Source: Bacteroidota bacterium (GTDB lineage: Bacteria; Bacteroidota; Ignavibacteria; UBA10030). Taken from it: a stretch of DNA of 64,000 bases. Both the position numbers and the translations under genes were made by a program. The stretch's first letter is position 1; each line of letters starts with the position of its first letter. Shown here piece after piece: positions 1 to 12,414 of this stretch. Below the pieces are notes generated by a model. It was not told where the DNA came from. It did not search any database and saw only the letters and a list, made by a program, of their open reading frames with translations. The stretch is taken from the NCBI GenBank assembly GCA_049644265.1, contig JBARRO010000005.1:36576-100575 (forward strand), in the 5' to 3' direction.

Positions 1-1478
1 GGCATCCTGGATATAAGCCGAAGAGCGGTACCCGTTTTGTGACTGGTCGGCGAGGAACGGACGCCCCCCCTGTGTGATATCGATTGCACGATAACGGATG
101 TCCCCTCCCGGTACGCTCGAGTCGGAGAGCGCAGGATTCGTTACTGCAAACGTGAAGAATTCCTTCAACCGGTACACCTCGCCCGCGGCACCGACCTTTA
201 TCTCGTGTGGGGCATCCCGAGATTCAACGCGCGAGGAATACTCCAGCTGAACCCCGTTCTGCACCAGCGACCTCTCGCCGCCGATGAAGAATTTTTCGTT
301 CTCCTGAATTGCCCTCTGCATGTCCGCCGCACCGGCAATCTGCCGCAGCCCACCGCTCGTGATCGTCGCTTTTCCGGATCGCGAATAAAAGAGGGCACTT
401 AGCAGGGACTGAGCGCCTGACTGCATGTTGACCCTTGCGCCAACAAGATAATCGTTCAAACTCTGACGTTGATCCTGCTTGCTGGCAGTGCTGCCGTTCG
501 GGACTTCATAGTCGGTCTTATTCACAGACCCGAGGACGTTGACATCCATGTCGGTGCCGGCGATCGCGTTTAGTTTGCCAAAGAGTGACTGGTTCTTTCC
601 CCGGGAGTGGATCGGGTCGAAACCGCTTACCGGATCGAGATAGCGCTCGGACTCACTCTGGCTTCCCATGGCGTAAAATCCGGCTTGTTCATGGAAGTTT
701 CCGCCCAACTCCACGGTGCCTTCCTTTCCTCCGAACGAACCGAACTGGACCGCTCCCCTCGCAAACAACGGCGTATCGAACCCTGATTTCGACGTAATCG
801 AAACGACGCCCGCGGCGGCAACGCCGTATTCCGGGTTCAGCGCTCCTGTCTGAATATTGACGGACTTAATGAGCTGGGCATGAAGAAGACTGGAATACAC
901 GCGGCTCATGTCAGCCGACACAGGAATGCCGTCGATGATATACTGGATCTGCGCATTTTCACCGCGGATATGGAGCCGTCCGTCTTCATCCGGCACAACC
1001 CCTGCCGTATTGAGAAGGATCGACTCGATTTTCTTCGAGGAAGAAACGGCGGGCAATTGCTCAATGGAGGAGGCGGTGTAAAAGGTGTGGGTGGATGTTT
1101 CGGCCTGGTCGCCTCGGAAGTTCGTAACAACCACTTCCCCCAGCCGATATTCCCGCCGAGCGGTGAGTTGAATCTTCAACGGAACGCTTGAGCGGACACG
1201 AACGGTCTGCTCGGCAACAAGGAGGGAGTCGGAGAATACCTGGACGTCGTACGCCCCGAACGGGACGCCGCGGATCGTGTGCTGTTCATTCGGCTTCACC
1301 GACCGCCCAAGGACAACCGAGCGGCTCGTGATCTCAACGAACCTTACGTCGAGGGATTTTTCGAGGTCCGACGACTGATCCGAGATCGTCATGACGATCG
1401 TCCCTTGCGATTCCTGCGCAATGGAAAAGGAACAGAAAAGCGAAAGTAGAAAGATGGAAAGCGAAACTCGTTGACTCA
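1..1478 (-). CDS. TonB-dependent outer-membrane receptor, N-terminal part only; C-terminus runs off the window edge
   Basis: Minus-strand ATG at 1476-1478. N-terminus MSQRVSLSIFLLSLFCSFSIAQE reads as a signal peptide. It is followed by a carboxypeptidase-regulatory-like beta-sandwich and TonB plug-like motifs (LLNTAGVVPDEDGRLHIRGE...IDGIPV). The frame stays open to position 1. Confidence 0.75.
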
Positions 1479-1705
1479 TTGGACCTTCAATATTGATTCG
1501 GCGTATAGTACTAAACTCAGTGCGCAAAAACAATCACCACGCTTTATCTCTCTCGGCGTTCTCCGCCCGCCAGAGCAAGAACAGTGAGATTTTTCTTGCT
1601 TCTTAACGCCCGAAGCTTAAATTCACAGACAAGCACTCCCCTTCTATCCCTCTCCCCTGCTCCCCTGCTTCATTCCAAATCCCCCTCTGTCTTATCAGTT
1701 TGCAT

Positions 1706-2005
1706 ATGGTCGACAGAGCAACAAAATACATTGACGAACATTACGACGAAATCCAGACAGTCCAGGACGTCGCGGCGGCATTGAAGTGTCCCTACCATTC
1801 CTTGCGAAAGGCGTTTGCGCAGGAGATCGGCATGCCGATGCAGAATTATTTGCACCGGGTGCGAGTGCGGGCGGCAAAAGTTCTCATGAAGAAAAGCACC
1901 CTGAAACTCTACGCCATTGCGCGTCAGGTGGGATATTCGAGCGATAATTCCCTCCGCCGGCACTGGAAGAAATTTTACGGGCGGTGCCCGGGCAGGCGCT
2001 CATGA
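1706..2005 (+). CDS. Stand-alone AraC-family HTH domain protein, about 99 aa, with no sensor domain
   Basis: The translation matches the C-terminal HTH_AraC module of AraC/XylS regulators (...YHSLRKAFAQEIGMPMQNYLHRVRVRAAKVLM...IARQVGYSSDNSLRRHWKKFYG). The first ATG is at 1706; the ORF track begins at TTG 1700. Confidence 0.55.
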   Translation: MVDRATKYIDEHYDEIQTVQDVAAALKCPYHSLRKAFAQEIGMPMQNYLHRVRVRAAKVLMKKSTLKLYAIARQVGYSSDNSLRRHWKKFYGRCPGRRS

Positions 2006-2128
2006 ATTCCTCGGGTCAATTTTGTTTCTCAGCTCTGCTTCTCAACAATCGCCGATGAATATGCTTGATTATTCCGCGCCGGGATGTGATATTCGCAAGT
2101 AGAAACATTGTTCGTCAGGAGGGGGAAG

Positions 2129-2653
2129 TTGCAAAAGAATTTGTTAGCTGGCGTCTTACTACTGGGACTTGTTGTCCTTCCGATATCCGCCGTCTGGATC
2201 CTCCACGGCGAATTCACCAATCGATCCCCCGCACCCGGAACAAGAATCCCGTCCCTCATTCTGTCTACCCGGGATGGAAGTACATTTGCGCTCGGAGATT
2301 TCATCGGAAAGCGTGGACTGATCTTCTTCTTTACGGTAGAATGCTCCCATTGTCGAAAGGAATTCTCAAATCTGACGTCTCTCTACCCGCAGTACGCCAA
2401 AGACCTTCGCTTTTTCTTTGTTTCCCTTAGCGAGGTTGCTGATACCCGGGTTTTTCTCGGAATCAACGAGTCGACGAGGCCGGTGTTCTACTATAATAGT
2501 AGGAATGCGGGAAACGCTATTGATTTGAGCCTTGTCCCCACATTGTATTTGGTTGATGAGGGATTGATTCTTAGGAGCAAATATGTCGGCGAACGATCAC
2601 TGGAAGGGGATAAGCAAATCATTGAGGAGTTCATTCATGACTCCGCACGTTAA
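2129..2653 (+). CDS. Membrane-anchored thioredoxin-fold thiol:disulfide oxidoreductase, TlpA/ResA-like
   Basis: CSHC active-site motif in a redoxin context (FFFTVECSHCRKEF). N-terminal hydrophobic anchor/signal (QKNLLAGVLLLGLVVLPISAVW). Start proposed at TTG 2129, which lies 6 nt after a strong AGGAGGGG Shine-Dalgarno; the track start 2108 is also TTG. Confidence 0.7.
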   Translation: MQKNLLAGVLLLGLVVLPISAVWILHGEFTNRSPAPGTRIPSLILSTRDGSTFALGDFIGKRGLIFFFTVECSHCRKEFSNLTSLYPQYAKDLRFFFVSLSEVADTRVFLGINESTRPVFYYNSRNAGNAIDLSLVPTLYLVDEGLILRSKYVGERSLEGDKQIIEEFIHDSAR

Positions 2654-3185
2654 AGGAAATCTTCCTTCGAAGCCACCGGGAAAAGCCCTTGCACTGATTT
2701 TCGTGGTGGCAGGCTCGGCAGCTCTACTCGCAGCAGCCATTTCGGTAAGGATTGCCACCAAGGAGAACCGAAAAGATTTTATCCTGCAAGAGAGGGCAAA
2801 CACCTGCGGAGTAGCTGCAATGAAGATGGTGCTCGACGCATATGGAATCCATCGGACCATGGCAGACATTGAGAGTGAATTGCGGCCGTCACAAAAAGGT
2901 CTGAGCATGCTTGCCTTAAAGCGTTTCGCGCAGCAAACCGGCCTGTTTGTTCAAGGATGGCGGTTGTCCGCGGAGGAACTGAGCACTATCCCAAAGCCGG
3001 CCGTGCTATTCGTCCAAGGCTCGCATTACTGTATCCTCGATAGCGTCGACCGATCGCAGTATTTCTTCCGGGATCCGGCGTTCGGTGCCATACAAATGAC
3101 TGAGGAAGATCTCCAGAAAGTTTGGAACGGGGAAACTCTCGTTTTCTCAAACACGGTTCAGAACAAATTCGGAGAGGGTTTCTGA
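2637..3185 (+). CDS. Stand-alone peptidase C39-like (bacteriocin-processing papain-fold) domain protein with an N-terminal TM anchor
   Basis: C39 catalytic signature Q-x4-C (QERANTCGVAAMKMVL), a downstream His (GSHYCILD) and a DP motif. N-terminal TM segment ALALIFVVAGSAALLAAAISV. The ATG at 2637 overlaps the upstream stop by 17 nt (ATGACTCCGCACGTTAA), which suggests translational coupling. There is no fused ABC transporter domain. Confidence 0.7.
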   Translation: MTPHVKGNLPSKPPGKALALIFVVAGSAALLAAAISVRIATKENRKDFILQERANTCGVAAMKMVLDAYGIHRTMADIESELRPSQKGLSMLALKRFAQQTGLFVQGWRLSAEELSTIPKPAVLFVQGSHYCILDSVDRSQYFFRDPAFGAIQMTEEDLQKVWNGETLVFSNTVQNKFGEGF

Positions 3186-3235
3186 TGGCCCGCTGAAGAA
3201 TTTGCCCACGGAAACACAGAAGAAGCGGAAGGAGT

Positions 3236-3296
3236 CCACACGCGTCTTTCTTTTCCGTGTGTTTCGCGTGTTTCGTGGTCTCTTGTTTTTGGCGCG
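3236..3296. repeat. Intergenic heptamer-armed repeat element, family copy A
   Basis: ccgtgtgtttcgcgtgtttcgtgg tandem YTTYGTG units, with a complementary cacacgcg segment upstream. Confidence 0.45.
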
Positions 3297-3498
3297 ACAG
3301 TAAGGTCAGAAATATGCTGCGCAACCTGAACTTTTGTGGATCATCACCAAACCTTGCTCGCTGGTCTGTCAATTGACGATGGAAGCCCTGTGTGTGGTCG
3401 GCCCCCACATGCGGAGTGGAAATCCCGATGGGCAGAGGGCTGCAGCGGGCAAGAACATAACTCATCATCATTAACATATAATGGAAAAGGGGGAAGCC

Positions 3499-3783
3499 AT
3501 GAAAAACACAAAGAATCGAATTTGGGTTCTCTGTATTCTCTCCGCTATTCTTGTGAGCGGAGTGAATTTTGCTGCCGCGAAACCGGCCAATGTAGATCTT
3601 GGTCAGAATCGGGTCACGACGGCGATCATGCAGCAAGTCGACCACGGAGCCTTGCTCGGTGATGGAGAGCTCAACGCTGTCGTCGGAGGTGCGACGGGAT
3701 GCGCCAGGTTCTACGGCTGCTATTATTGCTGTCTGGATTTGTGGATCATCGAGATTTGCGTCACGGTTTGTTTTCCGTGGTAA
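3499..3783 (+). CDS. Small Cys-rich secreted peptide precursor with a double-glycine leader motif
   Basis: 95-aa ORF with a strong Shine-Dalgarno (AAGGGGGA) before ATG 3499. The N-terminal segment IWVLCILSAILVSGVNFAAA is signal-peptide-like. The stretch LLGDGELNAVVGG fits the LSxxELxxIxGG leader consensus at positions -12, -8, -7, -4, -2 and -1. The core ATGCARFYGCYYCCLDLWIIEICVTVCFPW is 30 aa with 6 Cys. An alternative ATG at 3628 would give a classical 21-aa leader and a 51-aa precursor. Confidence 0.55.
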   Translation: MKNTKNRIWVLCILSAILVSGVNFAAAKPANVDLGQNRVTTAIMQQVDHGALLGDGELNAVVGGATGCARFYGCYYCCLDLWIIEICVTVCFPW

Positions 3784-3877
3784 ACTGAAGCGAGGAAGCT
3801 CTTCTCGGAGGTTCGGGAAGAGCTTTCTTCTCCTTTTAATCCCACACTATCGAAGAACTTTTTTTTGGAGTATATCC

Positions 3878-4471
3878 ATGGTTCGAGACGCAAGTCGCTT
3901 GAGTGTGGTCCTGGCGCATGTTCTTTTGTTCACAACAAAAACCGCCGGACAAATCCCTTCTGGGGGAAGCGACTTTGGATTCCTTGATCAGGTACACTGG
4001 GGGATGTCGCTCGAGGCGGCTCGGGACTCACTGAACTCGTTTCATCCTTCCCTCGCTCAAAGGCCGATGCCGAATCTTCCGCCTGACGATCCTGATAATC
4101 GCAGCCGTGCTGCCCGCCTGGGACTGCAGGAGACTTCTGACACTGTGTTGGTAGTTCCATTCGATCTCCTCGGTGAAAAAGCAAGGGCAACGTTGTTTTT
4201 CAGCATTGCCGGCAAGAGACTCTGTTCAGCATCGATTGCCGTGCAGGAAGCAACGGATGAATTATTCAGAAAGGTGCTGAAAACCCTCGAACTCCGTCAC
4301 GGACCCCCGTCGGACTATCAGAAGAAACAAGAAACAAAGCTGTTCTTTACATTCGATTTCGAGTTACGGTCATGGAAGACCCAGTCTCAACTCATCGCCT
4401 TGGTGGATGTTCTCCTTAACGCATCCGTCCAAACATTCACGATTGATTACACCAAACTCTTAGAAGAGTGA
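3878..4471 (+). CDS. Hypothetical protein with an N-terminal hydrophobic or signal segment
   Basis: 198-aa ORF from ATG 3878, with GGAG upstream. The track's longer form, 3599, starts at TTG and overlaps the peptide gene. I recognise no family. Confidence 0.5.
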   Translation: MVRDASRLSVVLAHVLLFTTKTAGQIPSGGSDFGFLDQVHWGMSLEAARDSLNSFHPSLAQRPMPNLPPDDPDNRSRAARLGLQETSDTVLVVPFDLLGEKARATLFFSIAGKRLCSASIAVQEATDELFRKVLKTLELRHGPPSDYQKKQETKLFFTFDFELRSWKTQSQLIALVDVLLNASVQTFTIDYTKLLEE

Positions 4472-4540
4472 CTTAGAATCACTCCGCTCAAAGAAGATCT
4501 TTTTCCTGCTGGTCCATGTAATGAGGAAGGGGGATATGTC

Positions 4541-5191
4541 ATGCATGAGATGAGGGGCATCATAACGGCACCCTCCGAAACATTTTCCTTGATTGCCGCT
4601 GATCCGCGATGGAGATTGGCTTCAGTTGTGGTGACGTGTGGTTTAACGGCCCTTGCCTGGATAAAGACGTGCTTCGACAAAGGCTCCCTGTCCTTCGATT
4701 TGATTCTTTGGTGTGTTCTTTTTCTTATCTTATTCACTGTCCTGATACTTGTGACGCTGATTCTCGCTGCGTTTGTTTTTCTCAGTATTCACGCCTTTGT
4801 CCGATCGAACGAGCCGTCGTTTAAAACCATGTTTTCCGTCGTTGTTCACACTGGCATTGTGTTTCTGCTTGGAGAAGTTGCCAACTTAGTGCTCGTCCGT
4901 CTGAACATCCTTGATCCGTCATCGTTTCCTGTCCCCAATCGCTTCCCGATGGGGCTCGACGTCTTTGCAATAGGAACTCACCTCCCTTCCGCGGCGGCAG
5001 TGATCCTCTACAGTTTCAATGTGTTCACACTTTGGTACTTTTCCATCCTGGGACTCGGAGTTTCGGTGGTCACCGGTCTCGGCAAAACAACCTGCCTTGC
5101 GATCGCATCCTCCGCGTGGCTTCTCGGCGTGGTCTTTATCATCTCGTTAGTAGTCGCACTCGGAGGAACGTCGCTCGGGATTAAATTCTGA
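4541..5191 (+). CDS. Hypothetical polytopic membrane protein, Yip1/DUF1282-like topology
   Basis: ATG 4541 is preceded by AGGAAGGGGGA. The protein is 216 aa with about 5 hydrophobic helices. The Yip1 family assignment is tentative. Confidence 0.5.
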   Translation: MHEMRGIITAPSETFSLIAADPRWRLASVVVTCGLTALAWIKTCFDKGSLSFDLILWCVLFLILFTVLILVTLILAAFVFLSIHAFVRSNEPSFKTMFSVVVHTGIVFLLGEVANLVLVRLNILDPSSFPVPNRFPMGLDVFAIGTHLPSAAAVILYSFNVFTLWYFSILGLGVSVVTGLGKTTCLAIASSAWLLGVVFIISLVVALGGTSLGIKF

Positions 5192-5417
5192 TCAATCGGT
5201 CGGAGCCTCATGATACACCGTGTGACTCTACCCTCCCACCTTCTCATGTGACTCTCTCATGCAACAAGTCTTGATTCCCGAGTGGGCTGCGTGCCTGTAA
5301 AGAGCCAGCCCCGAGTTGCTCCTCGTCCCTCTTTTCCGTACCATTCTCGCACCGACTCACCTCCTGAACTGACGACCCCGAACCATCCGTTCGAAACTAT
5401 TTGGCCAATCCCTCACT

Positions 5418-7910
5418 ATGAAGAAACGGAACAAATCCGCCTCGAAAGTCTCTGCTGGCAACTCGAATCCCGGAGTCGCTCTCGCATCCGCGTCTCCTCC
5501 CCGACCGCTTCCCGTCGAGAAACTGCGATGGCAGTGCGACCCGAACTCTCTGGGCGTGAAATCAACTGCCGACATCAAGCCGAGCCGTGAAATCATCGGG
5601 CAGGACCGGGCTCTCCGGGCCTTAAAGGTCGGCCTCGAAATGGCTCATTACGGCTACAACATCTTCGTCACCGGCCTGTCCGGAACCGGTCGCACCACCA
5701 CGATCAAGCGACTCCTCCAGGACTTTGAAAAGAAGCACGTCGACCTGAAAGACCACTGCTATGTCTATAATTTCAAGAACCCCGATATGCCGATGGCAAT
5801 TTCCCTTCCGGCGGGACAGGGAAAGGGCTTGAAGGAAGACATGGAGAATTTCATCAACGAACTCCTGCGGGATATTCCCTCGGTTTATGAAAGCCAGCGA
5901 TACCAACAGGAAAGAAAAACCATGGTCCAGCTGTTTCAGGACCGCCAGAAGAGCGTCCTTCAGGATTTTGAAAAGAGGGTGAAGTCGCAGGGGTTCGACC
6001 TGGTCCAGGTTCAGGTCGGCAACGCCATGCGCCCCGACATCGTACCGGTATTCAACGGAGCTCCGTCTACGATGGATCAGCTCGAGGCCTCCGCGCAAAA
6101 AGGCGAAATTCCGAAGGATCAACTCGAAGCAGCCAAAGAACGTCTGGGCGAGCTGGAAAAGCAAATGTCCACGGTGTTCCGGGAACTGCGGAACATCGAG
6201 AAGAAAGTACAGCGCTCCCTGGAGGAGCTCGAAGAAAAGCTCGTGATGCCGATCGTCGACGCCGCCGTGAAGATCCTGAAAACGACGTACGACAGCCCCA
6301 AAGTACACGCCTACCTCGACGAAATCCGAACGGACGTTCGCGAAAACCTCGAGCGATTCCGGCGTCAATTGGCTCCCCCTTCAACACAGGAGGACGGCGA
6401 AGAAAACGCGGAAGACCAGTTCACGGAATTCCGGGTAAACGTCCTGGTTGACAATTCCGAAACACAACATGTTCCGATTGTGATCGAGACAAACCCGAAA
6501 TACAAGAACGTGTTCGGCACGGTGGACCGTGAACTGGAAAAAGGCGGTGTCTGGCGAACGGATTTCACCCACATCAAGGCCGGGTCACTTCTTCATGCCG
6601 ACGGCGGTTACCTGGTCCTCAACGCTCTCGATACGCTCATCGAACCCGGTGTATGGCAGGATTTGAAGCGAACGTTACGAACTGGAATGGTCGATATTCA
6701 GACCTACGAACCGATGTTCGGGTTTGCACCGTCGGGGATGAAACCGGAACCCATCACCCTGCACCTAAAAGTGATCATGATCGGGGAGACGGATCTCTAC
6801 TTTCTTCTCTACAGCAGGGACGACGATTTCAAGAAGATCTTCAAGATCAGGGCCGACTTCGACGTCGAAATGGTGAAAAACTCCGAAACGGTTTCCAAGT
6901 ACCTGAGCTTTATCAAGATGATTTGCGACGACGAACACCTCATGCCCTTCGCGGCCTCGGCGCTTGCACAAATCGTCGAGTTTGGGGTTCGGCTTGCCGG
7001 CAGGCAGGAAAAGCTTTCTACGCGATTCAACGTCATTGCCGATGTCGCCCGTGAGGCCAATTACTGGGCATCGAAAGCTCAGGCGAAGTCCGTATCCGCC
7101 GAACACGTGGAAAAGGCGATCAAGGAGCGGGAGTACCGGGTGAAATTGGTCGAGGACAAGCTTCAGGAACTGATCGAGGATGGGACCATCATGATCGATA
7201 CCGACGGCGCTGTCGTCGGTCAGGTCAACGGTCTGTCGGTCTATGACGTCGGCGAACATGCATTCGGAAAACCGTCGCGGATCACCGCAAAGACTTCACT
7301 CGGCCGCGCCGGCGTCATCAACATCGAGCGCGATGCGGAACTCAGCGGTCCAACGCACAACAAGGGCGTCGCAATTCTCAGCGGCTTTCTGCGCAGCAGG
7401 TTCGCACAGAACAAACCGCTTATCATGGACGCCAGTATCACGTTTGAACAGTCGTATGGCGGCGTCGACGGCGATAGTGCTTCGTCCACCGAGATCTATG
7501 CGATCCTCTCCAGTCTTGCCGAAATACCGCTCCGGCAGGACATCGCGATAACCGGGTCGGTTAACCAGAAAGGGGAAGTTCAACCGATCGGCGGGGTGAA
7601 CCTGAAGATCGAAGGATTCTTCGATGTCTGCAAAGCGCGCGGATTCACGGGCAGGCAGGGAGTCATCATCCCGCACCAGAACATCAAAGATCTGATGCTC
7701 CGGGAAGAAGTCTACGCGGTGGTCAAACAAAAGAAATTCAATATCTATGCGGTAAAGACCGTCGACGAAGGAATTGAGATTCTCACAGGAACAAAAGCGG
7801 GGAAACAACGATCCAACGGATCGTTTGAGCCGGGTACGGTGAACTTCCTGGCTGACCGAAAACTGTTAAAGTATGCGGAAGAGTGGAAACGCTTCGAAGC
7901 GAGGACTTGA
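5418..7910 (+). CDS. Lon-like ATP-dependent protease family protein, AAA+ plus S16 proteolytic domain, COG1067 type
   Basis: Walker A motif GLSGTGRTT. The C-terminal Lon protease domain carries SYGGVDGDSASSTE...QKGEVQPIGGV. Length is 830 aa. Confidence 0.85.
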   Translation: MKKRNKSASKVSAGNSNPGVALASASPPRPLPVEKLRWQCDPNSLGVKSTADIKPSREIIGQDRALRALKVGLEMAHYGYNIFVTGLSGTGRTTTIKRLLQDFEKKHVDLKDHCYVYNFKNPDMPMAISLPAGQGKGLKEDMENFINELLRDIPSVYESQRYQQERKTMVQLFQDRQKSVLQDFEKRVKSQGFDLVQVQVGNAMRPDIVPVFNGAPSTMDQLEASAQKGEIPKDQLEAAKERLGELEKQMSTVFRELRNIEKKVQRSLEELEEKLVMPIVDAAVKILKTTYDSPKVHAYLDEIRTDVRENLERFRRQLAPPSTQEDGEENAEDQFTEFRVNVLVDNSETQHVPIVIETNPKYKNVFGTVDRELEKGGVWRTDFTHIKAGSLLHADGGYLVLNALDTLIEPGVWQDLKRTLRTGMVDIQTYEPMFGFAPSGMKPEPITLHLKVIMIGETDLYFLLYSRDDDFKKIFKIRADFDVEMVKNSETVSKYLSFIKMICDDEHLMPFAASALAQIVEFGVRLAGRQEKLSTRFNVIADVAREANYWASKAQAKSVSAEHVEKAIKEREYRVKLVEDKLQELIEDGTIMIDTDGAVVGQVNGLSVYDVGEHAFGKPSRITAKTSLGRAGVINIERDAELSGPTHNKGVAILSGFLRSRFAQNKPLIMDASITFEQSYGGVDGDSASSTEIYAILSSLAEIPLRQDIAITGSVNQKGEVQPIGGVNLKIEGFFDVCKARGFTGRQGVIIPHQNIKDLMLREEVYAVVKQKKFNIYAVKTVDEGIEILTGTKAGKQRSNGSFEPGTVNFLADRKLLKYAEEWKRFEART

Positions 7911-7929
7911 GTGGAAGCATTACGCAGAG

Positions 7930-8155
7930 ATAACGGAGAAGAACAGAGGACTCGCAGAAAAGAAGCGTTTTTTTGGTTAGTTACTTTAGAAAACAAAAAA
8001 ACGTGACCTCTGTGTTCACCGCGGCTTCTGTGAAATGCTCCCGGAGAGTGCAGAGAAAAGAACCATCCTACAATCTCCTGGTCCTAAACCTCTGTGATCT
8101 CTGCTGTTCCCTGTGTCCTCTGTGAAATGCTTTTAAACCGGAATAGTCGTATCTT
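7930..8155. repeat. Intergenic heptamer-armed repeat element, family copy B (composite)
   Basis: The left arm is cacagag-type, in reverse-complement orientation (gcagagataacggagaagaacagaggactcgcagaaaag). Then comes an A-run (aaaacaaaaaaacg). The right arms are cctctgtgttcac...cttctgtgaaatgc and cctctgtgatctctgctgttccctgtgtcctctgtgaaatgc. Confidence 0.5.
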
Positions 8156-8197
8156 TTTGCGGTAGGTTTTCCAAGAAAAGACCGAAAGGGCAATCTC

Positions 8198-8812
8198 ATG
8201 ATGAAAGGACTGATTCTTGCAGTAGCCATCGGCAGCATCGCAATCGCGCAGGAATCTCATCGATTCTCGATTTCGCCCATCGCTGCCGTCAGCCGGTATG
8301 TCCTGGACGATCATATCACGATCGGACCGATGATCGGAGTTCGATTTCAATCGCGGGAATTCAGCTCGAACGCCGTGGGAGTGTCGCTCGGGGTAATCCT
8401 TCGACCCAACGGCTTCGTGGAGTACGGCTCCGAACCGTTCACCTATCACGACCCCCAACCCCTGTATCAGCTGCAACCGCCGTTGGCAAGCAGAGTGATG
8501 CGTCAAACGCGGTTCGGACTCGGCCTGGGATTTTTTGGCTTCGACTGGCGGACCTATCTGGCTGACGGGGACATCCGACCCTACGTGGGAGCCGGAGCTT
8601 CATTGATTGGGTGGCCTTCGGCAAGCAGCTACGCCGGAACGATCAGCCCCGACATCCACGCCGGCGTTGATGTTCATCTCTCACGCGGCGTCAACGCATT
8701 CGCCGAAGCACAGTATCTCTTCGGCTCGCCGACTCTGTTTGGATCCTCCGGTTCGAGCTTATCGAATATTACAACGCTGGCGCTTGGTATAAGCTTCGCG
8801 CCCCGTTGGTAG
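8198..8812 (+). CDS. Outer-membrane beta-barrel protein, OmpA-like barrel or porin family
   Basis: Signal peptide MMKGLILAVAIGSIAIAQE, alternating amphipathic beta-strand pattern, and a C-terminal aromatic residue (…FAPRW). Confidence 0.55.
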   Translation: MMKGLILAVAIGSIAIAQESHRFSISPIAAVSRYVLDDHITIGPMIGVRFQSREFSSNAVGVSLGVILRPNGFVEYGSEPFTYHDPQPLYQLQPPLASRVMRQTRFGLGLGFFGFDWRTYLADGDIRPYVGAGASLIGWPSASSYAGTISPDIHAGVDVHLSRGVNAFAEAQYLFGSPTLFGSSGSSLSNITTLALGISFAPRW

Positions 8813-8921
8813 ATCAAGATTCCAAAGGGCTCCGGAAATCCCCTCGGGTGTTTCCTTTCGTCGATTGTTCTCCAGCTGACCTTCCCGGGTTAGCCATTGT
8901 TCTGGATTTCTTCAATCCCTC

Positions 8922-9914
8922 ATGAATACCGCAAAACGCGCACTCCAACTCGTTGCTCTCCTCTTCCTTATCCTCCTCGCCGGGGTGCTTGGATACCATC
9001 TCATTGAGGGTTGGTCATGGTTTGATTCTTTCTACATGACTGTTATAACGCTCGCGACGGTGGGGTACGGTGAAACACACCCTCTTTCTACCGCAGGGAG
9101 AGCTTTTACGATTTTTCTCATCATGGGCGGGCTCGGCATCATCCTTACCGCCCTAACCGAAATCACGATCTTCATCGTTGAAGGAGAGATGACCGGTTTT
9201 CTCAGGAGAAGAAAAATGAATCAGGTGATCGGAAAAGTTTCCAACCACTACATCCTCTGCGGCGCCGGAAAAAGCGGCCATCATGTTCTCGAGGAACTTA
9301 CAAGAACAAAGCGGAAAGCCGTTGTTATTGAGTCGGATTCGGAGAAAGTAATCAGGTTGACAGAACAGAAGCATCTCGTGGTGGAGGGCGATGCAACTGA
9401 AGACAGCATCCTGCAGAGCGCAGGTATCGACCGGGCCGCAGGACTTGTCACCACCTTGCCGAACGATCGCGACAATCTGTTTGTGGTCATCACGTCGCGC
9501 GGTTTGAACCCCAAACTCCGGATCGTGGCAAAAGTCGAGGACATCAGCGGGAGGAATAAATTCATTCGAAGCGGTGCGGACGCGGCGATCTCCGCAAACT
9601 TCATCGGCGGGCTCCGCATGGCGTCGGAACTGATGCGGCCCGATGCAGTGAACTTCCTCGACATGATGCTCAGGGATAATTCGGAGCTTCGGGTTGATGA
9701 AGTGCGGATCGGACCTCAGTCGAAGTACAGCGGGAAGTCCCTGGCACACTGCGATGTGTTTGAGTCGGCGGGTGTCATCCTGGTCTCCCTGAAACAGGGT
9801 GACTCATTTAAATTCAACCCCTCACCATCGACGGTGCTCTCTTCCGGGGATACCGCGATCGTGATCGGCAACCCGGAGCAGATCTTCGCTGCAAGGTCCA
9901 AACTAAGCGTCTAG
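8922..9914 (+). CDS. Potassium channel protein with RCK/TrkA domains
   Basis: TVGYG selectivity filter. It is followed by a TrkA-N Rossmann segment (ILCGAGKSGHHV) and a TrkA-C domain. Confidence 0.85.
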   Translation: MNTAKRALQLVALLFLILLAGVLGYHLIEGWSWFDSFYMTVITLATVGYGETHPLSTAGRAFTIFLIMGGLGIILTALTEITIFIVEGEMTGFLRRRKMNQVIGKVSNHYILCGAGKSGHHVLEELTRTKRKAVVIESDSEKVIRLTEQKHLVVEGDATEDSILQSAGIDRAAGLVTTLPNDRDNLFVVITSRGLNPKLRIVAKVEDISGRNKFIRSGADAAISANFIGGLRMASELMRPDAVNFLDMMLRDNSELRVDEVRIGPQSKYSGKSLAHCDVFESAGVILVSLKQGDSFKFNPSPSTVLSSGDTAIVIGNPEQIFAARSKLSV

Positions 9915-9917
9915 ACA

Positions 9918-10060
9918 GAAAACATTGCACAGAGGTCACAGAGAAAAGCAGAGCTCACAGAGGAAGAATTGGATAAAGTAGCCAAAAAAAATCAAACGCC
10001 TTAAACCTCCGTGTTCTCTTCTTTGTGATCTCTGTGCAAGTAAAGACAGAAGCCAAACCT
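9918..10060. repeat. Intergenic heptamer-armed repeat element, family copy C
   Basis: The left arm is gcacagaggtcacagagaaaagcagagctcacagagg. Then comes the A-run gccaaaaaaaatcaaacgccttaaa. The right arm is cctccgtgttctcttctttgtgatctctgtgcaag. Confidence 0.5.
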
Positions 10061-10069
10061 CTCGCCGCC

Positions 10070-11902
10070 TTACCGAAAAGCTTGCTTGTAGCGTCCGTAC
10101 CATGCCTGGGTCTTCTTCCAGAACCCGAATGCATCGGTCCACGGAAACACCTGCGTCCTCCGAATCTCAAAGAAGTCCTCCGAAAAGACCATCGGGCCTG
10201 AATCAGCCGCCACGGCAAATTCATAGCCCGCCTCCTCGACCGCTCTTTTTGCCTCTGCATTGACCGCTCCGTACGGATAGGCGAACGAGACAACGTTCCT
10301 TCCGGTCGTCCGCTCAAGCATCCGCTTTGATTCCGCGAGTTCTTTCCTCACTTGACGTGAACCGACCGAAGTGAGGTTCGGGTGCGTCATGGTGTGCGAA
10401 CCGAATTCAAACCCGGAATCCGCCATTTCGCGTATGTGCCGGTTACTCATCAAAGGCACGCGGGGCTCGTCGGCATCCCAGAAGTTGTTCCTTCGCAGAC
10501 GATCCATAACCATGTAAATGACCGCTGTGAATTGAAACCGTTTGAGGATCGGAAACGCCATCGCGTAATTGTCCTCATAGCCGTCGTCGAATGTGAGAAT
10601 GATCGGCCTCCGGGGAATTCGGACCCCACCGCTCAGCGCCTGTTCATAATCCTGAAATGTCAGCGGGGTAAAACCCCGTCGCTTCAGAGATTCCATCTGG
10701 GCTTCAAATTGGCCGGCCGTGACCCAGAGTCCGTGACGCGAACCCTCCGGCGGCTGCTGAACAACCCGGTGATACATCAGCACCGGAATGGATGACGGAG
10801 ATTTCACCGTAGCCCTTGCCCGCCGGTAAACCTGCCGAACCGCCGGTTCAACCACCGCAATGTCAAACTGCTCCTTGACCCTCCGTTGCAGTTCTCTCCC
10901 TCCGCCTTTCCCCAAGGGTTTTTCCAGAAGACTCTGAAGGTTTCTTGCGACCTGTTCTCCGTCTGTTCTCTGCCGAATTCCCGTGTCTCCGAAATTCGAC
11001 TCCATCGCGGACTGGAAATTCCCTTCATCAATCGGACCGACACAGTGACTTTCCCCGAATGCAACGGTTTGTTTGCCCGCTGCAAGCGACTCGATGGCAA
11101 CCCTTCCTGCACCGATGACAATATCGGCGGTCCGGACAAACGCCTGTACATCTTCCCGGAAACCGTGAAGGTGAATCTTCTCTTTTCCCGACCGCTTGTT
11201 GAAAATTGCGGCGGCAGTTTCAATGTCGTCAGGAGTCTTCACGCCACCCAGAATGTGGAACGACCAGTCTTTCTTTTTTGACAACCTTGGGAGCACATCG
11301 GAAATCAGAAACCTGACAACATCCCCCTTGGGCCCCGAAAGCCGTCCCACGAAAAGAAGCACCTTTGTCGAACTCTTGGCGCCGAAGACCGCGGCTTTCG
11401 AGCGATGACCCCTCCCGGCAACCCAGCGCTTTAGGTCCAGTCCGTTGGGAATCACGACAATCTCTTCAGGACGAAGTCCCAGGTCCGCAACGAGATGTGC
11501 CTTCAAGGTCTGACTGACTACAATCAGGTGCCTGCCGTAGATGCTGAAGGCCTTGCTGCTCGCGTGAATGTGTTGTCTTCCATGGACGGTGGAGACAAAC
11601 GCGGTTCGAGTCCGCCGTGCAGCAACCCAGGACACCCAGCTCGCCGCCCTGGAATGCGCATGAATGACATCAATTCCCCGGGACCGGATGATCTCTGTCA
11701 GGAACGCGATATTTTTCCAGCGTTGAGGATACGATCGCCTGCCGATGGGATGTTGGATGTACTCACCTGCAAAGGGTGTCGTGAGCGTGTCCGAGACAAT
11801 CGTCACCGTATCTCCGCGTCTCTGTTGGGCGGCGGCCAGAGTTACCGCGTACACCTCCGCCCCTGTGACTTCAAACTGTGAGAGGACGTGAAGGATTTTC
11901 AT
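10070..11902 (-). CDS. Fusion of a family-4 glycosyltransferase (GT4) with a polysaccharide deacetylase (NodB/CE4)
   Basis: The N-terminal ~370 aa look like GT4 (group 1 glycosyltransferase). The C-terminal ~230 aa carry the NodB motifs TFDDGYEDN and HTMTHPNL. Confidence 0.8.
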   Translation of the reverse strand: MKILHVLSQFEVTGAEVYAVTLAAAQQRRGDTVTIVSDTLTTPFAGEYIQHPIGRRSYPQRWKNIAFLTEIIRSRGIDVIHAHSRAASWVSWVAARRTRTAFVSTVHGRQHIHASSKAFSIYGRHLIVVSQTLKAHLVADLGLRPEEIVVIPNGLDLKRWVAGRGHRSKAAVFGAKSSTKVLLFVGRLSGPKGDVVRFLISDVLPRLSKKKDWSFHILGGVKTPDDIETAAAIFNKRSGKEKIHLHGFREDVQAFVRTADIVIGAGRVAIESLAAGKQTVAFGESHCVGPIDEGNFQSAMESNFGDTGIRQRTDGEQVARNLQSLLEKPLGKGGGRELQRRVKEQFDIAVVEPAVRQVYRRARATVKSPSSIPVLMYHRVVQQPPEGSRHGLWVTAGQFEAQMESLKRRGFTPLTFQDYEQALSGGVRIPRRPIILTFDDGYEDNYAMAFPILKRFQFTAVIYMVMDRLRRNNFWDADEPRVPLMSNRHIREMADSGFEFGSHTMTHPNLTSVGSRQVRKELAESKRMLERTTGRNVVSFAYPYGAVNAEAKRAVEEAGYEFAVAADSGPMVFSEDFFEIRRTQVFPWTDAFGFWKKTQAWYGRYKQAFR

Positions 11903-11964
11903 TTAATTACTAAACCGCGCGGGAGGATAGGATAAAAGGGGATTATCGGGGAGGAAGGTAACAA

Positions 11965-12010
11965 TAACAAAGCGCTAAACTCTTCGTGTCCTTAGTGTGC
12001 TTCGTGGTAG
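11965..12010. repeat. Intergenic heptamer repeat element, family copy E (single arm)
   Basis: aacaataacaaagcgctaaactcttcgtgtccttagtgtgcttcgtggtagtgag. Confidence 0.4.
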
Positions 12011-12032
12011 TGAGCCCATCATAGGAGTTTTT

Positions 12033-12070
12033 TGGAAAAAAAGAAAGCGGCCCCGGTTTCCCGGAGCCGC
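12033..12070 (-). terminator. Rho-independent terminator of the KMEKK-repeat gene
   Basis: The minus strand reads ggcggctccgggaaaccggggccgc, a GC-rich hairpin, followed by tttcttttttt. Confidence 0.6.
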
Positions 12071-12108
12071 CTTGTCTAAGAACTTCAGAAGACGACTTAC
12101 CTCTTGTC

Positions 12109-12414
12109 TTACTTCTTCTCCATCTTCTCCTCAGCCTTCTTCTGCATCGCCTCGCCCTTCTTCTGCATCGCCTCGCCCTTCTTCTCCATTTTCTTTCCCT
12201 TCTTCTGCATCTTCTTTCCCTTCTTTTCCATCTTCTTTCCTTCCATCTTGTCGGCCTTCTTCTCCATCTTCTCGCCAGCCTTCTCCATCTTCTCACCCTT
12301 CATTTCCTTCTTCTCACCCTTCTTCTCCACCTTTTCCTGCTTCTCCTGGGCAAAGCCTGTCTGCGCCGCGAGAACTGCAACCGCGAGCGTCAAAACGATG
12401 AATAATTTCCGCAT
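12109..12414 (-). CDS. Secreted low-complexity Lys/Glu/Met-rich repeat protein with KMEKKGE-type tandem repeats
   Basis: ATG 12414 is preceded by GGAGGA. The signal peptide MRKLFIVLTLAVAVLAAQTGFAQE is followed by about 10 repeats of (K/E)KMEKKGE. The DNA carries the exact tandem 21-mer ttcttctgcatcgcctcgccc, twice. Confidence 0.55.
   Translation of the reverse strand: MRKLFIVLTLAVAVLAAQTGFAQEKQEKVEKKGEKKEMKGEKMEKAGEKMEKKADKMEGKKMEKKGKKMQKKGKKMEKKGEAMQKKGEAMQKKAEEKMEKK

Follow-up and report, generated by a model that had tools for sequence, protein, structure and literature searches.

Near the start of a 64,000-nucleotide stretch of contig JBARRO010000005.1 (positions 36,576 to 100,575 of the forward strand; a Bacteroidota bacterium of the Ignavibacteria), which was analysed whole and is referred to below as the window, a short open reading frame (ORF) encodes a cysteine-rich peptide whose precursor carries a double-glycine (GG) motif of the type cleaved by C39 cysteine peptidases. 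The ORF occupies window positions 3499..3783 on the + strand, from ATG 3499 to TAA 3781-3783, and specifies 94 amino acids. It lies in a cassette of five genes, in which a thiol-disulfide oxidoreductase and a stand-alone C39 peptidase precede the peptide and a secreted 197-aa protein and a polytopic membrane protein of the Yip1 type follow it, all on the same strand. Judging from sequence, the peptide family is rare and previously undescribed, and combines an apparent export signal with a bacteriocin-type GG motif in a single precursor.

The peptide precursor and its family

The 94-aa product is annotated by NCBI as a hypothetical protein of a metagenome-assembled genome (MAG) labelled 'Bacteroidota bacterium', and can be divided into three parts. 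Residues 1-27 (3499..3579) form a predicted Sec-type signal-like segment, with an n-region MKNTKNR, a 15-residue h-region and a c-region NFAAA; a plausible signal-peptidase site lies between AAA and KP. Residues 28-64 (3580..3690) make up the propeptide, a variable linker that ends in the GG motif LGDGELNAVVGG (3655-3690), and C39 cleavage is predicted after Gly64. The remaining core, ATGCARFYGCYYCCLDLWIIEICVTVCFPW (residues 65-94 plus stop, 3691..3783), is 30 residues long, acidic and hydrophobic. Its six cysteines, single CC pair and C-terminal tryptophan are as reported in a preliminary description made from the DNA sequence. With three disulfides its predicted monoisotopic mass is 3504.50 Da, with an isoelectric point of 4.4 and a grand average of hydropathy of 1.09.

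C39 peptidases require hydrophobic residues at positions -4, -7 and -12 (PMC10885120). The peptide offers L(-12), E(-8), L(-7) and V(-4) in front of its two glycines (L53, E57, G63-G64). In six-frame translation the window yields 127,996 residues, among which the strict pattern L...E[LIVM]..[LIVM][LIVMT]GG has a single match, and of the four matches to a looser leader pattern only that in the peptide is followed by a short cysteine-rich tail. The motif is more than a chance occurrence, since the strict pattern is single in the window and the key positions are conserved across 16 homologues. The GG leader motif proposed in the preliminary description is thereby borne out, and a stand-alone C39 gene lies directly upstream of the peptide gene in 12/12 loci.

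Comparison with relatives shows that ORF 3499..3783 is a real coding gene. It is undisrupted in 14 related loci; loss or frameshift of the ORF in relatives, which the preliminary description had raised as a way to refute it, was looked for and the reading frame found intact. Pairwise dN/dS (the ratio of non-synonymous to synonymous substitution rates) among close homologues is 0.17-0.38 over the whole ORF and 0.11-0.20 over the first 29 codons, values so low in this region that the N-terminal hydrophobic segment must be both translated and constrained. This segment is kept in all homologues. A Shine-Dalgarno sequence, GGGGGAAG, can be read directly at 3489-3496 (+ strand), some 5 nt 5' of ATG 3499, and an AGGAG or GGGG-run Shine-Dalgarno stands at constant spacing from the first ATG in each of the 13 loci with upstream DNA.

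On this comparative evidence the true start is ATG 3499. The strong Shine-Dalgarno and Sec-like N-terminus noticed there at the outset are both conserved among the loci, whereas the suggestion that two starts are equally plausible has to be dropped, as only ATG 3499 is backed by conservation. The methionine at ATG 3628 is not conserved and the 43 codons 5' of it are under purifying selection. A classical 21-aa leader beginning at this methionine can likewise be set aside, the signal segment and the GG propeptide being joined in one precursor. An in-frame ATG at 3481 is missing from relatives. A 219-aa antisense ORF (2986..3645) is spurious: it overlaps both the peptide gene and a conserved + strand RNA, and has no counterpart elsewhere.

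Relatives of the peptide are few. A word-indexed search of 5.8 billion proteins returned three close sequences only, while seven clusters, all with the Sec-like plus GG architecture, emerged when 1.84 billion cluster representatives were searched exhaustively with a HMMER profile. Scans with back-translated patterns added one locus from the GTDB species genomes, in a 'Bacteroidota bacterium' MAG, and eight from JGI metagenomes. The two closest homologues, with 72% and 59% identity, lie on metagenomic contigs with the same gene order as the window. In total the family comprises approximately 18 distinct sequences; its taxonomy is based on two MAG labels ('Bacteroidota bacterium'), and few independent lineages are represented.

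All of these sequences share a single layout. Leaders are 46-64 aa long and begin in every member with an n/h/c signal-like region, in which the n-region is positively charged (+1 to +3) and the h-region mostly 14-15 residues in length (range 12-23). The linker that follows varies in both sequence and length, and leads into the motif L(-12)xxxE(-8)[LM](-7)xx[IVA](-4)[VIT]GG. Among the 16 homologues there is little or no variation at L(-12) and E(-8); position -7 is taken by L or M except in two members and position -4 by V, I or A, and of the two glycines G63 never varies and G64 hardly does. Homologues without the GG motif, which would have told against the earlier proposal, were sought: GG is present in 15 of the 16 aligned members, and the remaining one has GA with the hydrophobic register preserved. 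The core begins with 1-3 residues and [ST]GC, continues through a loop of 8-14 residues to CC[LV]D[LF]WΦΦxΦC, and ends in a variable tail. Four cysteines are invariant and some members, including the window peptide, have six. Predicted cores measure 30-46 residues and always carry a net negative charge, from -1 to -7. Two subtypes can be distinguished, one (that of the window) ending in C-x-P-W/V and the other, subtype B, with a GD-x-[YH] loop and a longer tail. A good signal-peptidase site is not evident in subtype B, or in many family members. The arrangement of signal, propeptide and cysteine-rich core follows the prepropeptide logic of animal toxin precursors.

The preliminary description placed the core in no recognised family, and profile comparisons agree: no model in Pfam or NCBIfam matches the peptide family at a useful threshold, and its profile has no match among PDB chains. 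The NCBIfam leader model TIGR01847 gives no match to the peptide even at E<=10. Sub-threshold NCBIfam matches to two bacteriocin-like models (E 0.01-0.02) are taken as chance or leader-level resemblance, and a match of one family member to Pfam Conotoxin (E 0.0011) is almost certainly due to chance. Viral contigs yielded no relatives of the family, and the searchable literature no description of it, of its core motif (CCLDLW) or of the cassette.

Partner proteins and gene order

The gene immediately upstream of the peptide (2637..3185, + strand) encodes a stand-alone, membrane-anchored C39 cysteine peptidase (PF03412, 3.8e-26) with one N-terminal transmembrane (TM) helix. The 182-aa form is the NCBI call; C39 proteins of the cassettes measure 178-190 aa, each with one TM helix and without ABC domains. 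The best PDB match is LahT150 (6mpz, E 2.2e-8), the double-glycine protease domain of a C39-ABC transporter (PCAT), followed by PCAT1 and ComA. Cys75, Gly76, His148, Asp164 and Pro165 (numbered on a 200-aa ORF) are invariant in 13 cassette C39 sequences, and the oxyanion Gln69 is present in 11/13. By these residues the protein is an active-type peptidase and not a degenerate C39-like domain. It falls outside the FapD (NF058616) and FilB (NF050078) equivalogs, scoring 51.5 bits against a cut-off of 330 and 38.4 bits against a cut-off of 475, respectively.

In all 13 loci the C39 TM helix has more positive charge on its N-terminal than on its C-terminal side. In most loci the net charge is +3 to +7 on the N-terminal side compared with -4 to +2 on the C-terminal side, and often +5 to +7 compared with 0. 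Under the positive-inside rule this pattern predicts a periplasmic catalytic domain.

Overlapping the start of the C39 gene, positions 2108..2653 (+ strand) encode a signal-anchored TlpA/ResA-like thiol-disulfide oxidoreductase with the active site CSHC, whose start is uncertain (174-181 aa). This redoxin matches AhpC-TSA (1.7e-8) and Redoxin (8e-7) in Pfam and ResA (6.4e-9) in NCBIfam. Four K/R residues precede its N-terminal TM segment, as in an N-in anchor, and its CxxC motif varies between loci (CSHC, CPHC as in DsbA, CERC, CWRC). A redoxin adjoining the C39 gene fits a disulfide-rich product. Downstream of the peptide, a 197-aa protein with a predicted signal peptide is encoded at 3878..4471 (+ strand). 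We regard it as an accessory member of the cassette: homologues, recognised by position and sequence, occur in L001, L002, L006, L007 and L010-L015, and the family (approximately 170-200 aa) is usually present, although by gene call it is absent from one distant contig. Searches of Pfam, NCBIfam and PDB, profile searches included, gave no match to this protein, and its AlphaFold2 model is unusable, with a predicted local distance difference test (pLDDT) score of 35. The fifth gene (4541..5191, + strand) encodes a 216-aa polytopic membrane protein related to Yip1 and YknW (PF04893, 2.1e-11; NCBIfam YknW_fam, 4.4e-10, 39 bits against a cut-off of 110), a candidate immunity or handling factor. 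Taken together, the C39 topology, the extracytoplasmic redoxin family, the signal peptide of the 197-aa protein and the Sec-like N-terminus of the peptide lead us to predict that the cassette products meet at the periplasmic face of the inner membrane.

In every locus with enough flanking DNA, tblastn finds the genes arranged as redoxin, C39, peptide, (197-aa-type protein), Yip1, and this arrangement also holds around C39 homologues of only 36-43% identity. Among loci with the relevant flank, C39 lies directly upstream in 12/12, the redoxin is present in 11/11 and Yip1 lies downstream in 11/11; the Yip1 gene is also found on the P0010 contig. Neither ABC transporter genes nor HlyD-type genes are linked to any of the cassettes. 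A PCAT or ABC partner for the peptide was rejected on these grounds and from the window itself, in whose 64 kb we found no PCAT and no LSGGQ signature, the sole ABC-like Walker A motif being in a 329-aa segment about 40 kb away. Neither a FapF-type channel nor a glycosyltransferase or other modifying enzyme is found among the cassette genes.

The surroundings of the cassette differ between clades. In the window clade it lies between an AraC-type gene and a LonB/LonC-like protease gene, and in subtype B between LonA-DnaX and an amidase gene; because these neighbourhoods differ, the five genes can be said to travel as a unit. The AraC/MarA-type helix-turn-helix protein of the window (101 aa; 1700..2005, + strand; HTH_18, 2.4e-15) is a possible regulator. 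Its gene, which encodes the helix-turn-helix region only and is of MarA/SoxS size, also stands just 5' of the cassette in L001, L002 and the P0003 contig, and is a neighbour of the cassette in the window clade only; in subtype B it is absent, the genes before the cassette there being LonA and DnaX. Next to Yip1, four subtype-B loci carry a same-strand gene for an N-acetylmuramoyl-L-alanine amidase (Amidase_3), which meets or overlaps the end of the Yip1 gene (L012 9665-10450, L010 7787-8692, L014 1864-2637, L015 6396-7190). It may be co-transcribed with Yip1, or the adjacency may be mere lineage synteny. The amidase was rejected as a family-wide member of the cassette, being confined to subtype B, where the upstream genes are also syntenic; a search of the window found neither an amidase nor DnaX. 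Also rejected were three genes 3' of the window cassette, encoding an 830-aa Lon-like protease (5418-7910, + strand; LonC-helical, LonB-like AAA and S16 domains), a 204-aa protein and a K+ channel, which are conserved only in L002, a close relative, and absent from distant loci. A canonical LonA is encoded upstream in subtype-B loci. Both clades thus have a Lon-family protease in the vicinity of the cassette, perhaps by coincidence.

Cassette and neighbours diverge at different rates. Relative to L002, the cassette proteins show identities of 59% (peptide), 55% (197-aa protein), 64% (Yip1), 72% (C39) and 77% (redoxin), compared with 91% for both the Lon-like protease and the K+ channel and a range of 86-91% when the 204-aa protein is included. 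To judge from these comparisons, the faster divergence of the cassette is typical of conflict loci.

RNA elements flanking the peptide cistron

Between the C39 and peptide genes lies a structured RNA leader of approximately 105 nt (3351..3457, + strand), recognised by covariation. In the RNAalifold prediction a hairpin tops a long stem that is bulged and in three parts. The closing stem pairs 3355-3369 with 3437-3451, and the apical hairpin pairs 3390-3397 with 3405-3412 around a conserved C-rich loop, TCGGCCC at 3398-3404 (YCGGCCY in the family). All 13 loci with DNA upstream have the element, including those whose C39 proteins share less than 40% identity, and it is more conserved than parts of the peptide coding sequence. 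Copies were located at 1373-1479 in L001, 1340-1446 in L002, 1234-1342 in L003, 1198-1306 in L007, 634-742 in L008, 3208-3316 in L009, 6117-6225 in L010, 697-805 in L011, 7856-7964 in L012/L013, 103-210 in L014 and 4612-4720 in L015. In subtype B it begins some 5-25 nt past the C39 stop codon, and this nearness marks it as intercistronic.

Compensatory double changes are seen in 22/34 pairs, 93.8% of RNA cells pair compared with approximately 40% in slid-partner controls, and 0/500 shuffles attain the observed covariation. Scored with a covariance model, the loci reach 84-111 bits on the + strand and no more than 28 bits on the - strand; each locus has a single copy of the element, and the window has no other. 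Folding of the single sequence is not significant (z -1.39), and the case for an RNA is one of covariation only. Rfam 15 gave no match in the whole window at the gathering score, and none at E<=1 in window positions 1-12000 and six other loci; a scan of the element by itself returned chance-level small nucleolar RNA matches (E 4-8). A sigma-54- or sigma-70-like promoter, considered by eye for the same conserved block, was dropped in view of the strand-specific conservation, the G·U pairs and the compensatory changes. On the strength of covariation the leader is a candidate new class of cis-regulatory or processing RNA tied to the peptide family.

The C-rich loop shows complementarity to the G-rich Shine-Dalgarno sequence (3489-3493, GGGGG), as CCCCC/GGGGG in the window clade and CCUCC/GGAG in L007 and L008; in subtype B the loop CCCCC is imperfectly complementary to AGGAG. 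The pairing is thus inconsistent across subtypes, and sequestration of the Shine-Dalgarno by the loop is speculation.

Directly after the peptide stop, a terminator scan identified a 17-bp GC-rich hairpin with a T-rich run (3792..3839, + strand); it is conserved in both L001 and L002, and 10/13 loci with downstream DNA have a strong hairpin (-26 to -33 kcal/mol) past the peptide stop. The window element looks like a leaky terminator, an attenuator or an mRNA-stabilising structure, as is typical of precursor-peptide genes. We infer that the upstream RNA and the downstream hairpin bracket the peptide cistron and may separate its level from that of the enzymes, through processing and stability or through regulated translation.

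Two further features of the window lie outside the cassette. A long, near-perfect hairpin (9919-10044) separates the convergent K+-channel gene (ending at 9914) from a 610-aa minus-strand gene (10070-11902); it gives chance-level Rfam matches to plant microRNAs on both strands (E 0.05-0.2) and is probably a bidirectional terminator. At 11943-12401, overlapping ORFs on the two strands have repetitive Arg/Trp-rich and Ser/Pro-rich translations, which points to a simple-sequence repeat in the DNA.

Proposed maturation, likely role and related systems

We are now able to propose a pathway for the maturation of this peptide. In our judgement it is probable that the ORF specifies a prepropeptide, consisting of a Sec signal, a GG propeptide and a cysteine-rich core, which is the substrate of the dedicated five-gene cassette and likely yields an antagonistic peptide. 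The precursor would cross the inner membrane through Sec by means of its N-terminal segment and be left periplasmic or membrane-tethered; it may stay tethered in subtype B, since no good signal-peptidase site is evident there. The anchored redoxin would then form or shuffle two to three disulfides, and the periplasm-facing C39 peptidase would read the L(-12)/E(-8)/Φ(-7)/Φ(-4)/GG helix, cut after Gly64 and free the core. The Yip1-like protein and the secreted protein of approximately 190 aa could shield the producer or pass the peptide on. We infer all of these elements, namely Sec dependence, periplasmic topology, cleavage site, disulfides and activity, from sequence.

Several of the proposed steps have precedents. 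FapD is a C39 peptidase active in the periplasm, whose substrate is unknown and whose class is called uncharacterised by its authors (PMC5557850), and the nap island of Neisseria combines GG peptides with a stand-alone C39 peptidase, NapP, for which periplasmic cleavage has been proposed (PMC11798529). Bacteroidetocin (PMC6671954) and glycocin (PMC12457901) loci encode dedicated thiol oxidoreductases for cysteine-rich GG-leader bacteriocins, and Bacteroides are said to be without general disulfide machinery (PMC6671954; PMC12457901). Yip1 proteins recur in bacteriocin clusters, where they are suspected immunity or transport factors (PMC11580447). The most likely product is a microcin- or bacteriocin-like antagonistic peptide, a role that we favour because of the parallels with known systems and because the cassette evolves far faster than its surroundings.

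A number of observations weigh against this proposal. In being acidic the cores differ from most membrane-active bacteriocins, but anionic examples exist among class II microcins. For the redoxin, no protein that would re-oxidise it is obvious among the cassette products, and it might act as a reductant or an isomerase. No outer-membrane exporter is found among the cassette genes, which leaves the exit of the mature peptide from a diderm cell unexplained. The cassette is chromosomal, single-copy, syntenic within clades and not on an obvious mobile element, a setting no less in keeping with a housekeeping or signalling function than with a toxin. The amidase gene that adjoins Yip1 in subtype B would suit a role in the envelope or in autolysis like that of the Naps. 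The charge bias at the window's own C39 anchor is modest (+4 compared with +2), and the AlphaFold2 model of the peptide (pLDDT 46, all-helical) is of too low confidence to be informative; for this model and that of the 197-aa protein, the low scores reflect alignments that are too shallow.

The acidic cores, the missing outer-membrane exporter, the syntenic chromosomal locus and the subtype-B amidase make a signalling or self-directed role a serious rival. Here maturation would be the same, and the product would be a pheromone or a self-directed envelope factor, such as an autolysis or programmed-death peptide like the Neisseria Naps. The locus is vertically syntenic, an AraC/MarA-type regulator adjoins the cassette in the window clade, and the Neisseria GG peptides that are paired with a stand-alone C39 peptidase promote autolysis and do not kill competitors (PMC11798529). 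We nevertheless hold this role to be rather unlikely: the cassette has no sensor kinase or receptor gene, the amidase occurs in one lineage only, where syntenic upstream genes suggest that its adjacency may be inherited, with none in the window, and rapid cassette divergence together with a conserved polytopic membrane protein fits a toxin and its immunity better.

Two further explanations concern the processing itself. Characterised PF03412 peptidases that act on GG-leader peptides are all cytoplasmic PCAT domains (PMC10885120; PMC10318531), and the best NCBIfam match of the cassette C39 is to an NHLP-type PCAT. Given these facts, and the small charge bias at the window's anchor, the C39 domain might face the cytoplasm and process the precursor conventionally, with the N-terminus serving in membrane targeting only and export proceeding via Yip1 or an unlinked transporter. 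Yet the positive-inside bias points to an N-in/C-out topology in 13/13 loci, strongly in most, the redoxin family and the 4-6 cysteines demand an oxidising compartment, an n/h/c-type N-terminus would put the GG site outside the cytoplasm, and an ABC transporter gene is linked in no locus; cytoplasmic processing is accordingly, in our estimate, improbable. To the idea that the peptide is an uncleaved small membrane protein working with Yip1, its GG stretch a structural loop and C39 cutting some other substrate, we give the smallest chance. Two hydrophobic segments are predicted in the peptide, the low-confidence model is all-helical, and [ST]GC stands only 1-3 residues past GG, so that conservation crosses the putative cut site. 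Against this, the conserved positions are those used by C39 peptidases (-12, -8, -7, -4, -2 and -1) while the rest of the linker varies, and the GA member keeps the hydrophobic register, GA being a known alternative cleavage motif. Moreover, an h-region of 12-15 residues does not have the length that a stable TM helix needs, such a motif is found in no other protein of the cassette, and it is invariably the C39 gene that directly precedes the peptide gene.

If the prepropeptide reading is correct, its implications extend beyond this locus. GG leaders are taught as a signal for the cytoplasmic C39 domain of an ABC exporter, whereas here the motif stands behind a Sec-type signal. With this signal, and with a stand-alone C39 peptidase expected to face the periplasm, GG cleavage would be decoupled from ABC export. 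That the cassette always has its own C39 peptidase and disulfide enzyme and never an ABC transporter suggests a new Gram-negative mode of maturation for such peptides. The fuller proposition, a transporter-independent maturation of GG peptides in diderms that uses Sec, a private redoxin and a periplasmic C39 peptidase, with a new RNA class governing production, has in our view about an even chance of being right. The peptide is a candidate simple substrate for periplasmic C39 peptidases, whose substrates are unknown (FapD) or only proposed (NapP), and would give this uncharacterised class its first clean protease-substrate pair with a canonical motif. Genome mining guided by Pfam, NCBIfam or PCATs misses the family, and similar Sec plus GG precursors may therefore be overlooked elsewhere. 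A naturally stand-alone C39 peptidase could also serve as a tool for leader removal, and the disulfide-rich, acidic, hydrophobic cores would be a new peptide scaffold.

The closest general resemblance is to class II GG-leader peptides and microcins, with which the system shares the GG motif, the hydrophobic residues at -4, -7 and -12, and a locus-encoded C39 peptidase with Cys, His and Asp. Class II peptides are normally cleaved and exported by a C39-ABC protein (PMC10885120), whereas the C39 peptidase of the window is stand-alone and anchored. Classical GG leaders are also short (about 15-30 aa) and hydrophilic, in contrast to the 46-64-aa leaders with a Sec-like start described here. The family thus departs from three classical features, namely a PCAT-coupled protease, a short hydrophilic leader and a match to the curated leader model. 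Bacteroidetocins (class IIf) share with it a GG leader, a mature part of 30-46 residues with 4-6 cysteines, a thiol oxidoreductase encoded at the locus and a host among the Bacteroidota (PMC6671954). Their leader, by contrast, is 15 aa long and has no hydrophobic signal segment.

The FapD peptidase of Pseudomonas, from the Fap amyloid system, and the NapP peptidase of Neisseria resemble the cassette C39 in being periplasmic (shown for FapD, proposed for NapP and predicted in the window) and without transporter domains (PMC5557850; PMC11798529), and NapA-C, like the window peptide, are small peptides with a GG motif (PMC11798529). Both systems pair the peptidase with a FapF-type outer-membrane channel, which the window cassette does not have, whereas the latter has a TM-anchored protease, a redoxin and Yip1. 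Neither the substrate of FapD nor its recognition site is known and the Fap proteins have no canonical GG leader, in contrast to the textbook motif of the window peptide. For the Nap peptides, passage through the inner membrane is a matter of speculation (a holin-like protein has been suggested), whereas the window peptide bears an explicit Sec-like signal.

Loci of the glycocin/sublancin and pediocin types share a cysteine-rich GG-leader precursor, C39 activity and one or more thioredoxin-like oxidoreductases (PMC12457901). These loci are Gram-positive, use PCAT-coupled export and, for glycocins, need a glycosyltransferase; none of this applies to the window cassette. The dedicated thioredoxin-like proteins PedC, of pediocin, and BdbA/B, of sublancin, are parallels to the cassette redoxin. 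A last parallel is the SdpC/SDP toxin of Bacillus subtilis, a Sec-signal precursor that is trimmed to a short, hydrophobic, disulfide-containing peptide. YknW, a Yip1-domain membrane protein of the YknWXYZ system, is linked to resistance. SDP has no sequence relationship to the window peptide and is processed without a C39 peptidase or a GG motif, but the two are alike in their Sec signal (predicted for the window peptide), in the trimming, here proposed, to a short hydrophobic disulfide peptide, and in a Yip1-domain partner.

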